A stretch of 64,000 nucleotides of DNA from Escherichia coli (GTDB lineage: Bacteria; Pseudomonadota; Gammaproteobacteria; Enterobacterales; Enterobacteriaceae): assembly GCF_044324785.1 (NCBI RefSeq), contig NZ_CP172127.1, one strand, 5' to 3'. Below the pieces are notes generated by a model. The model was not told the origin of the DNA. It was given only the letters and a program-made list of their open reading frames with translations, and ran no database searches. How positions within the stretch are numbered: the stretch's first letter is position 1; each line of letters begins with the position of its first letter. Positions 52,224-55,728 of this stretch are shown one piece after another. A program made the translations under genes and the position numbers.

Positions 52224-52232
52224 ATTTACATT

Positions 52233-52260
52233 TCTGCATGGTTATGCATAACCATGCAGA
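52233..52260. terminator. Perfect 28-bp palindrome immediately after rhtA (tctgcatggttatgcataaccatgcaga)
   Basis: Perfect inverted repeat seen directly; likely the rhtA terminator, possibly also a protein-binding site upstream of dps. Confidence 0.5.
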
Positions 52261-52377
52261 ATTTCTCGCTACTTTTCCTCTACACCGTCTTTATATATCG
52301 AATTATGCAAAAGCATATTTATTCCGAAAATTCCTGGCGAGCCAATAAATAAGAATTGTTCTTATCAATATAACTAA

Positions 52378-53025
<648 letters not shown>

Positions 53026-53253
53026 ATCCATCGCTGATGGTGCAGAACTTTAGTACACGATAAAAGCGGCTTCCTGACAGGAGGCCGTTTTGTTTTGTAG
53101 CCCGCCTCAACGCACTTATTTAGTGCATCCATCTGCTATCCCCAGCTGGTTAAGTAAATTTTTTGTATCCACATCATCACACAATCGTTACATAACGATT
53201 GTTTTTTCATCAGGTTTTACGCTAAATAATCACTGTGTTGAGTGCACAATTTT

Positions 53254-53300
53254 AGCGCACCAGTTTGGTGCCCCAGAATGGTGCATCTTCAGGGTATTGC
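53254..53300 (+). promoter_or_regulatory. NtrC (NRI) enhancer sites upstream of glnH (gcaccagtttggtgc and atggtgcatc...)
   Basis: Matches the TGCACCA-N3-TGGTGCA NtrC consensus; established architecture of glnHp2. Confidence 0.7.
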
Positions 53301-53358
53301 CCTATAAATCGTGCATCACGTTTTTACCGCATCTCGATAAATCAATGAGTTGCAAAAC

Positions 53359-53375
53359 TGGCACGATTTTTTCAT
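53359..53375 (+). promoter_or_regulatory. Sigma-54 promoter glnHp2 (TGGCAC-N5-TTTCA)
   Basis: ctggcacgattttttcat matches the -24 GG / -12 GC-type sigma-54 consensus, about 55 bp upstream of the glnH ATG. Confidence 0.75.
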
Positions 53376-53413
53376 ATATGTGAATGTCACGCAGGGGATC
53401 GTCCCGTGGATAG

Positions 53414-54175
<762 letters not shown>

Positions 54176-54204
54176 TAACGCTACGCCTGTAAAGCGCACT
54201 GGCA

Positions 54205-54262
54205 GTTCCCTCTCCCCTCTGGGGAGAGGATTAGGGTGAGGGGCGCAAACCCGCTCCGGGGC
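54205..54262 (+). repeat. GC-rich hairpin-forming element in the glnH-glnP intergenic region (intra-operon attenuator or REP-like element)
   Basis: cctctcccc / ggggagagg inverted repeat followed by gggtgaggggcgcaaacccgctccgggg, seen directly; family assignment uncertain. Confidence 0.4.
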
Positions 54263-54313
54263 CATTAATTACCCTGAATTTGATTATTTACACCACGGTA
54301 ACAGGAACAACAT

Positions 54314-54973
54314 ATGCAGTTTGACTGGAGTGCCATCTGGCCTGCCATTCCGCTTCTGATTGAAGGTGCCAAAATGACCCTGTGGATTTCGGTCCTCGGT
54401 CTGGCTGGCGGCCTGGTGATCGGATTGCTGGCAGGTTTTGCACGCACCTTCGGTGGTTGGATAGCCAACCACGTCGCGCTGGTCTTTATTGAAGTGATCC
54501 GCGGCACACCTATCGTCGTCCAGGTGATGTTTATCTACTTTGCCCTGCCGATGGCGTTTAACGACTTACGCATCGACCCGTTTACTGCGGCGGTGGTCAC
54601 CATCATGATCAACTCCGGCGCGTACATTGCAGAAATCACGCGTGGTGCGGTGCTGTCTATTCACAAAGGTTTTCGTGAAGCAGGACTGGCGCTCGGTCTT
54701 TCACGTTGGGAAACCATTCGCTACGTCATTTTACCGCTGGCATTGCGTCGTATGCTGCCGCCGCTGGGTAACCAGTGGATCATCAGCATTAAAGACACCT
54801 CGCTGTTTATTGTTATCGGCGTGGCGGAACTGACCCGTCAGGGGCAAGAAATTATTGCCGGTAACTTCCGCGCCCTTGAGATCTGGAGCGCCGTGGCGGT
54901 GTTCTATCTGATTATTACCCTGGTGCTGAGCTTTATTCTGCGTCGTCTGGAAAGAAGGATGAAAATCCTGTGA
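54314..54973 (+). CDS. glnP: Glutamine ABC transporter permease GlnP (219 aa)
   Basis: [48 protein letters not shown]... matches GlnP. Confidence 0.93.
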
Positions 54974-55692
54974 TTGAATTTAAAAACGTCTCCAAGCATT
55001 TTGGTCCAACCCAGGTGCTGCACAATATCGATTTGAACATTGCTCAGGGCGAAGTCGTGGTGATTATCGGGCCGTCCGGTTCCGGTAAATCGACCCTGCT
55101 GCGCTGCATCAACAAACTGGAAGAAATCACCTCCGGCGATCTGATTGTCGATGGCCTGAAGGTTAACGATCCGAAAGTTGACGAGCGCCTGATTCGCCAG
55201 GAAGCAGGTATGGTGTTCCAGCAGTTTTACCTCTTCCCGCATCTGACGGCGCTGGAAAACGTCATGTTTGGTCCGCTACGCGTGCGTGGCGCGAACAAAG
55301 AAGAGGCGGAAAAACTGGCGCGTGAGCTGCTGGCGAAAGTCGGCCTGGCAGAACGCGCTCACCACTACCCTTCCGAGCTTTCTGGTGGTCAACAGCAGCG
55401 TGTGGCGATCGCACGCGCGCTGGCGGTGAAGCCGAAAATGATGCTGTTTGATGAACCGACTTCCGCTCTTGACCCGGAACTGCGCCATGAAGTGCTGAAG
55501 GTTATGCAGGATCTGGCTGAAGAAGGGATGACGATGGTGATCGTGACACACGAAATCGGTTTTGCCGAGAAAGTAGCTTCGCGCCTGATCTTTATCGACA
55601 AAGGCCGGATTGCGGAAGATGGCGATCCGCAGGTGTTGATCAAGAACCCACCGAGCCAGCGCTTGCAGGAATTTTTGCAGCACGTCTCTTAA
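54970..55692 (+). CDS. glnQ: Glutamine ABC transporter ATP-binding protein GlnQ (240 aa)
   Basis: [48 protein letters not shown]... Walker A and [15 protein letters not shown]; start overlaps the glnP stop. Confidence 0.93.
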
Positions 55693-55699
55693 CTTCTCA

Positions 55700-55728
55700 G
55701 CCTCCCTTTCCCCCGAAAGGGAGGCACA
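55700..55728 (+). terminator. Terminator hairpin after glnQ (cctcccttt cccccg aaagggagg)
   Basis: Inverted repeat seen directly after the glnQ stop. Confidence 0.55.

Follow-up and report, generated by a model that had tools for sequence, protein, structure and literature searches.

A BoxC-type hairpin between glnH and glnP of Escherichia coli and its putative role at the 3' end of glnH mRNA

The palindrome in the spacer between glnH and glnP of Escherichia coli is, judged by its sequence, a full-length and slightly diverged copy of the dispersed E. coli repeat BoxC. In published K-12 mapping data, a major steady-state 3' end of glnH RNA lies 3-4 nt past the stem of the hairpin in this repeat. 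We propose, with a probability of roughly 0.6, that the BoxC hairpin blocks 3'-to-5' exonucleases and leaves a protected glnH-only mRNA, an arrangement of the malE-malF type. A longer half-life or a higher level of glnH mRNA relative to glnPQ mRNA would be expected from such a hairpin, and read-through into the permease genes may be attenuated.

Locus and spacer layout

The window is the whole stretch of DNA analysed here, 64,000 nucleotides of E. coli contig NZ_CP172127.1 (assembly GCF_044324785.1). The genes dps, glnH, glnP, glnQ, and ybiO are located on its plus strand, and they correspond to the E. coli glnHPQ locus according to the K-12 annotation of the orthologous region. A sequence-only reading of the window had described a GC-rich palindromic element at 54176-54313. 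It had claimed a strong stem-loop without a U-tract, had set the element apart from REP, had left the repeat family unassigned, and had named RNA folding, BLAST, and 3'-end mapping as checks. It had also noted that such intra-operon hairpins typically stabilise the binding-protein mRNA and attenuate read-through into the permease genes, an interpretation that is supported in part here. The interval was verified as the exact 138-nt glnH-glnP spacer, from the stop codon to the ATG, and the sequence quoted in that reading is present within it. The BoxC core is in the sense orientation and starts 33 nt downstream of the glnH stop codon. The features of the locus are as follows, in window coordinates.

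53429-54175, plus strand: glnH CDS, periplasmic glutamine-binding protein, the gene 5' of the element (ORF list and K-12 annotation)
54173-54175, plus strand: glnH stop codon
54183-54279, plus strand: lineage-specific spacer cassette, delimited by eye from related spacers by comparison with SCPM-O-B-8794 and another relative
54186-54256, plus strand: full-length BoxC (PIT/TMECO) copy, including the weakly conserved left and right flanks (alignment and profile)
54208-54243, plus strand: 36-nt tripartite core, made of the C-block CCCTCTCCCC, the loop TCT, G-block 1 GGGGAGAGGA, the linker TTA, and G-block 2 GGGTGAGGGG
54209-54229, plus strand: perfect 9-bp hairpin, with arms at 54209-54217 and 54221-54229 and the loop at 54218-54220
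54233, plus strand: counterpart of the RNA 3' end mapped in K-12 (847200, minus strand), at the A of the TTA linker
54234-54243, plus strand: G-block 2, the putative third strand of a DNA intrastrand triplex, located 3' of the RNA end and strain-variable
54293-54302, plus strand: GlnZ sRNA target site CCACGGTAAC (literature, predicted seed duplex, and conservation)
54303-54316, plus strand: glnP Shine-Dalgarno AGGA (54303-54306) and start codon ATG (54314-54316)
54314-54973, plus strand: glnP CDS, permease, the gene 3' of the element (ORF list and K-12 annotation)
54970-55692, plus strand: glnQ CDS (ORF list)

Identity of the repeat

The TMECO motif was named BoxC earlier, as a palindromic repeat of the 1990s, and PIT elements is a later name from Maher's group (Holder et al. 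2015, PMC4666352). The core of the window copy, CCCTCTCCCCTCTGGGGAGAGGATTAGGGTGAGGGG, is identical to the commonest type-A TMECO, CCCTCGCCCCTCTGGGGAGAGGGTTAGGGTGAGGGG (PMC4666352), at 34 of the 36 positions. The BoxC family consensus spans about 56-65 bp, core and flanks together. The family alignment was made from 10 K-12 copies and the window copy. Beyond the 36-nt core, this alignment yielded a consensus with weakly conserved flanks, which reads ..AAAACGnGCnCGGACGGTC on the left of the core and AACAnnCCnGCnC on the right. The window copy agrees with this flank consensus at 10/17 positions on the left and at 7/9 on the right. A profile built from the 10 K-12 copies alone gave a single match in the window, at 54191-54250, with an E value of 2.9e-12 and a score of 41.8 bits. 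No further BoxC copy was found in the 64-kb window, either by pattern or by profile search.

The distribution of the element was determined by BLAST. The 71-nt element is a dispersed repeat, with 65,599 places in 5,425 of the 5,426 complete E. coli genomes; the number of places per genome has a median of 12 and a maximum of 26, and nearly all of the places are chromosomal. K-12 has about 30-36 BoxC copies; the window copy and the 10 K-12 copies compared are all located in intergenic positions. The core, the flanks, the profile, and the BLAST result thus assign the element to the BoxC/PIT/TMECO family, which the sequence-only reading had not done. The separation from REP stands, as the REP consensus (with its ..CTTATCMGGCCTAC-type arm) found no match in the spacer at up to 2 mismatches. 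An Rfam scan of 53000-55000 at permissive thresholds returned only chance-level matches, all of them far below the gathering scores.

The window copy shares with BoxC/PIT/TMECO the tripartite core, the flank consensus, the extragenic location, and the multiple dispersed copies in E. coli, but differs from it by two bases. Position 6 of the C-block is T, not G. With this T, the G.A mismatch seen in the common 'A mm' type is gone, and the C-block is therefore able to form a perfect hairpin with G-block 1. G-block 1 reads GGGAGAGGA, with its last G changed to A at 54230. The strict TMECO pattern, CCCTCNCCC-N3-6-GGGNGAGGG-N3-GGGNGAGGG, does not match the window copy. The G-to-A change at 54230 breaks this pattern, and the copy is therefore missing from the 23 K-12 sites in Table 1 of Holder et al. 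(PMC4666352). The absence of any mention of glnH or glnP in the Holder 2015 supplements (PMC4666352) fits the same change. The canonical G is kept at the equivalent of 54230 in the cryptic-clade Escherichia sp. E1V33.

Other BoxC copies between adjacent genes on the same strand were seen in K-12 at pstA-pstB (fetched-locus positions 1496-1530) and yihS-yihR (fetched-locus positions 1453-1487). The pstA-pstB copy is in another ABC-transporter gene cluster, and BoxC is antisense to the mRNA at both sites.

Structure of the hairpin

The inverted repeat is formed by CCTCTCCCC, the loop TCT, and GGGGAGAGG, and it makes a perfect 9-bp GC-rich stem at 54209-54229. RNA folding gave -18.3 kcal/mol for the minimal hairpin, in agreement with the strong stem-loop that had been claimed. 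Within the window copy, only the pairing between the C-block and G-block 1 is perfect according to RNA folding. For the canonical copies, RNAalifold favours a pairing of the C-block with G-block 2 via a G.U pair. No compensatory changes were found by RNAalifold among the 11 copies, which are too similar to one another to carry covariation evidence. An inverted or mirror relation of the BoxC flanks, seen by eye, was dropped when the consensus fold gave it no support.

Compared with shuffled sequence, the hairpin is more than a chance occurrence. The 21-nt hairpin pattern has 1 occurrence in the 64-kb window at up to 3 mismatches, versus 0 in 100 shuffles. A scan of the window for perfect hairpins with 9 bp or more in the stem and 3-8 nt in the loop detected only 7 distinct ones, of which this hairpin is 1; the scan produced 14 register/loop matches versus a mean of 1.8 in the shuffles. 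The longest perfect hairpin of the window is a different one, a perfect 13-bp palindrome, TTCTGCATGGTTATGCATAACCATGCAGAA, located at 52232-52261 between rhtA and dps. Against composition-matched shuffles, the z-score of the total folding energy was -1.97 when the whole spacer was folded and -0.9 when only the 71-nt core was. The energy of the whole spacer is unexceptional for such GC-rich DNA, and the specific perfect stem, rather than the minimum free energy, is therefore the evidence.

The lack of a U-tract was also confirmed. The bases after the stem are AUUAGGGUG (tail ATTAGGGTG), with only two U residues. An intrinsic terminator combines a GC-rich hairpin with an immediate U-tract; the hairpin is present here and the U-tract is absent. 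A consensus intrinsic-terminator scan of the spacer did not call the hairpin. As a separate observation, four G-tracts could form a possible RNA G-quadruplex, but two of them are located beyond the mapped RNA end.

Mapped RNA 3' ends at glnH and at other BoxC copies

A strong K-12 end at 847200 on the minus strand is present in all three Term-seq conditions of Adams et al. (2021, PMC7815308). It was covered in MG1655 by 30,332 reads in LB at OD 0.4, by 130,459 reads in LB at OD 2.0, and by 42,295 reads in M63 (PMC7815308, Supplementary file 1), and its class in the table is 'orphan'. Each entry in the sequence column of this table consists of the 3'-end nucleotide preceded by 50 nt and followed by 10 nt, a register that was calibrated on the thrL entry. 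This register places the 3' end at the A of the TTA linker, ...CCCUCUCCCCUAUGGGGAGAGGAUUA-3'. When the end was mapped through the K-12 locus, it fell on window position 54233, 3-4 nt past the stem. The Term-seq strain is K-12; its BoxC copy has the loop TAT where the window copy has TCT, and two bases upstream are different as well.

The counts at 847200(-) are of the same order as those of the neighbouring dps terminator in LB at OD 0.4, and they are 5-6 fold lower in LB at OD 2.0 and in M63. No other 3' end is listed from glnH to about 200 nt beyond glnQ in either LB condition, and the glnH-glnP spacer has no reported Rho-termination region (PMC7815308). Termination and processing are indistinguishable in Term-seq.

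Besides the glnH-glnP copy, at least four BoxC copies have an RNA 3' end adjoining the hairpin. At TMECO copy 20, a type-B repeat with a perfect stem that is sense to the transcript, the RNA ends 4 nt beyond the hairpin (3959467-, 28,044 reads). The lldD 3' end (3781065+) is located 3-4 nt past the perfect hairpin of copy 17, which is in the antisense orientation. Degenerate BoxC copies with Term-seq 3' ends were found at 4231270- and 632098+. At eight canonical sense type-A copies (near tauD, adk, ycjD, tldD, yhfS, zntA, yjdP, and gntP), no Term-seq end was found at the predicted positions. This null result may reflect low expression or the G.A stem mismatch ('A mm') of these copies.

Conservation within Escherichia and across Enterobacteriaceae

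In 5,400 of the 5,426 E. coli genomes, a 438-nt query across the spacer was matched over at least 80% of its length with no less than 95% identity. E. coli FORC_042, one of the few genomes without the element, is the exception that was inspected; IS26 has replaced the spacer and glnP in this strain, leaving glnH-IS26-glnQ. Eight Escherichia alleles were compared. The stem is invariant in all eight, and the loop varies (TCT, TAT, and GCC). G-block 2 varies by a 1-nt deletion (GGGTGA-GGG) and as GGGTGAAGGG, and the right flank is variable too. An invariant stem beside a variable third block fits a constraint on the hairpin and not on a triplex third strand, as far as this small sample of sequences goes.

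The comparison across genera used 80 glnH loci from species-representative genomes and the window, which makes 81 Enterobacteriaceae spacers. A stable single stem-loop is present in 81 of the 81 glnH-glnP spacers, with energies from -13.7 to -38.4 kcal/mol and a median of -20.8. These hairpins are drawn from at least four unrelated sequence classes: 41 are REP-like (CCCGG..CCGGG), 24 are of the GGGGCG..CGCCCC type, 14 are of other types, and 2 are BoxC. Many of the 24 GGGGCG..CGCCCC hairpins are followed by a T-run, which gives them the look of a terminator. Among the 81 spacers, just two have BoxC at this junction, those of the window strain and of Escherichia sp. E1V33.

In E. albertii and in SCPM-O-B-8794, a genome recorded as E. 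coli, the place of BoxC is taken by a REP-like GCCCGGCAG...CTGACCGGGC hairpin. Segregation of this REP-like spacer allele (2248-2341 of the SCPM-O-B-8794 locus) within E. coli was considered and rejected, as the allele occurs in 0 of the 5,426 complete genomes. SCPM-O-B-8794 is therefore probably a different Escherichia lineage. E. albertii and further relatives have an unrelated sequence with its own hairpin in place of the cassette at 54183-54279, and both sides of the cassette are conserved, especially the ..TTGATTATTTACACCACGGTAACAGGAAC.. stretch ahead of glnP.

The GlnZ target site

A second regulatory site, absent from the sequence-only reading, lies downstream of BoxC in the spacer and is separate from it. 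The GlnZ sRNA is processed from the glnA 3' UTR, pairs just upstream of the glnP Shine-Dalgarno, and represses glnP; compensatory mutations established this pairing in Salmonella as well as in E. coli (Walling et al., bioRxiv 10.1101/2022.04.01.486790; Miyakoshi et al., PMC9731577). The annotated K-12 glnZ seed was paired with window positions 54293-54302, and the predicted duplex has -18.4 kcal/mol. This figure comes from a seed-restricted prediction, and a run with the full-length GlnZ and the spacer gave meaningless whole-length pairing. Nearly all of the 80 related spacers retain the CCACGGTAAC motif, while the cassette 5' of it gets replaced. In the Salmonella pulse-expression results examined, GlnZ lowered glnP and glnQ more than 4-fold, and these are the only two glnHPQ genes named there among 12 hits. 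As far as those results go, the response of glnP and glnQ fits a junction that uncouples glnH from glnPQ.

Proposed role of the hairpin

Upon transcription of the operon, the C-block and G-block 1 would fold into the perfect 9-bp GC-rich RNA hairpin. The hairpin would then act as a barrier to 3'-to-5' exonucleases, and RNAs that were cut or terminated farther downstream would be shortened as far as the hairpin, so that a glnH-only mRNA would remain protected. Weak termination at the hairpin may occur in addition. The binding-protein message would outnumber or outlast the permease message, as in the malE-malF arrangement. The hairpin would also shield glnH from GlnZ, which acts at its separate site beside the glnP ribosome-binding site. 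In the E. coli lineage, BoxC would thus hold the role that unrelated REP-like or terminator-like hairpins would play in other Enterobacteriaceae.

The closest known systems are consistent with such a barrier. Stable hairpins lacking uridines mark exonuclease-protected 3' ends genome-wide, and some of these ends belong to binding-protein genes of ABC transporters (Dar and Sorek 2018, PMC6061677, PMC5927463). The protective REP/BIME stem-loops at malE-malF and hisJ-hisQ are located between the binding-protein and permease genes of an ABC transporter, and each is a stable U-less hairpin with a steady-state RNA 3' end right past the stem. The glnH-glnP junction shows the same features, but its hairpin has no sequence relation to REP. 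The stem-loops at Rho-dependent or processed 3' ends (PMC6061677, PMC5927463) are likewise stable, free of uridines, and followed immediately by a precise end, whereas the glnH hairpin comes from a dispersed repeat and has no reported Rho region (PMC7815308). In the assays of Hoyne and Maher, as cited in PMC4666352, PIT elements acted neither as promoters nor as terminators and left RNA polymerase unaffected. This result counts against termination and is compatible with an exonuclease barrier.

Alternative explanations

A neutral or selfish BoxC copy may have landed in a tolerant spacer, and the 3' end would then be an incidental by-product of any stable hairpin. We regard this as unlikely. 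BLAST detects the repeat at a median of 12 places per genome, no function has been established for it, and the total folding energy is ordinary for the composition, all of which a neutral repeat would accommodate; however, a stable hairpin is kept at this position in every related genus despite the replacement of its sequence. The stem is invariant among the eight alleles, in contrast to the variable loop and third block. The glnQ-glnP-glnH operon was among 390 operons analysed for differential decay and is absent from the decay-regulated list (Dar and Sorek 2018, PMC5927463), a point in favour of neutrality and against the proposed protection of glnH mRNA. The copy is nevertheless essentially fixed in E. 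coli, unlike the instability reported for TMECO loci (PMC4666352).

It is quite improbable that the hairpin is a leaky terminator or attenuator, which would stop part of the RNA polymerases after glnH either intrinsically, with a poor U-tract, or with the aid of a factor. Intrinsic terminators usually release the transcript farther than 3-4 nt from the stem. The precise end 3-4 nt past a GC-rich stem is in favour of termination, but this spacing is nearer to the stem than the usual intrinsic release point. The glnH hairpin resembles an intrinsic terminator in being GC-rich and following a stop codon, and 24 of the 81 spacers have a GGGGCG..CGCCCC hairpin at this junction, many with a T-run and the look of a true intrinsic terminator. 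The E. coli element differs from these in having no U-tract; its tail has only two U residues, and the consensus scan makes no call. The absence of a reported Rho-dependent region at the spacer (PMC7815308) is in favour of a leaky terminator, and the inactivity of PIT elements in reporter and polymerase assays, as cited in PMC4666352, is against it.

A DNA-level intrastrand purine-motif triplex of the C-block, G-block 1, and G-block 2 that stalls replication or promotes local instability has very little probability: such triplexes are very stable in vitro for TMECO oligonucleotides, TMECO loci are reported to be more strain-variable (PMC4666352), and the window copy keeps most of the tripartite motif, but in vivo footprinting gave no support for stable formation (PMC4666352), the window copy lacks one G of block 1, the third block and not the stem is strain-variable, and the locus is very stable (5,400/5,426 genomes at 95% identity or more). 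RNA does not form triplexes of the purine motif (PMC4666352), and a triplex is therefore unable to explain the RNA 3' end.

Significance

The family was described in the 1990s and the 3' end is already contained in a public Term-seq table; the element is therefore not new as an object. In the literature examined, BoxC/TMECO has been treated as a DNA triplex motif whose function is not known and which has no terminator activity (PMC4666352). The link between the BoxC hairpin and RNA 3' ends goes unmentioned in the BoxC/PIT/TMECO literature examined. The precise RNA 3' ends found here and at the at least four other copies provide a testable hypothesis for some BoxC copies.

A broader proposal, to which we give somewhat less than an even chance, is that perfect-stem BoxC copies are working RNA elements, that is, REP-like hairpins that define 3' ends by blocking exonucleases, and that BoxC replaced an ancestral REP-like or terminator hairpin at glnH-glnP. 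If this is true, repeat families would be interchangeable parts that set the ratio of binding protein to permease and shield glnH from GlnZ-triggered decay of glnPQ. A role would also be provided for BoxC/TMECO, a family without an assigned function for about 30 years. The glnH-glnP junction represents a natural experiment, in which different hairpin cassettes occupy one conserved site.

Other features around the glnHPQ operon

A canonical intrinsic terminator with a 13-pair stem and a T-run is located downstream of dps, at 53063-53091, and it corresponds to the very strong K-12 end 848340(-). Another K-12 'orphan' 3' end, 848057(-), detected in LB at OD 2.0 (PMC7815308), maps to about 53376, which is 53 nt before the start codon of glnH. 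It is in a U-rich stretch beside TGGCACGATTTTTTCA, which resembles a sigma-54 promoter upstream of glnH.

The glnQ-ybiO spacer contains a perfect 11-bp hairpin without a U-tract at window positions 55700-55725, 8 nt past the glnQ stop codon. The same hairpin in K-12 has a Term-seq end at 845561- with 29,295 reads, in M63 only, and this end adjoins the Rho-termination region 845551-. A REP/BIME-like block of about 143 nt is present between the glnQ stop codon and this hairpin in K-12 and is absent from the window strain.

On the minus strand, an ORF of 166 amino acids (..APHPNPLPRGERE..) at 53765-54265 runs antisense through glnH and the BoxC element. This ORF is almost certainly spurious and of the kind that repeat copies produce in automatic annotation.
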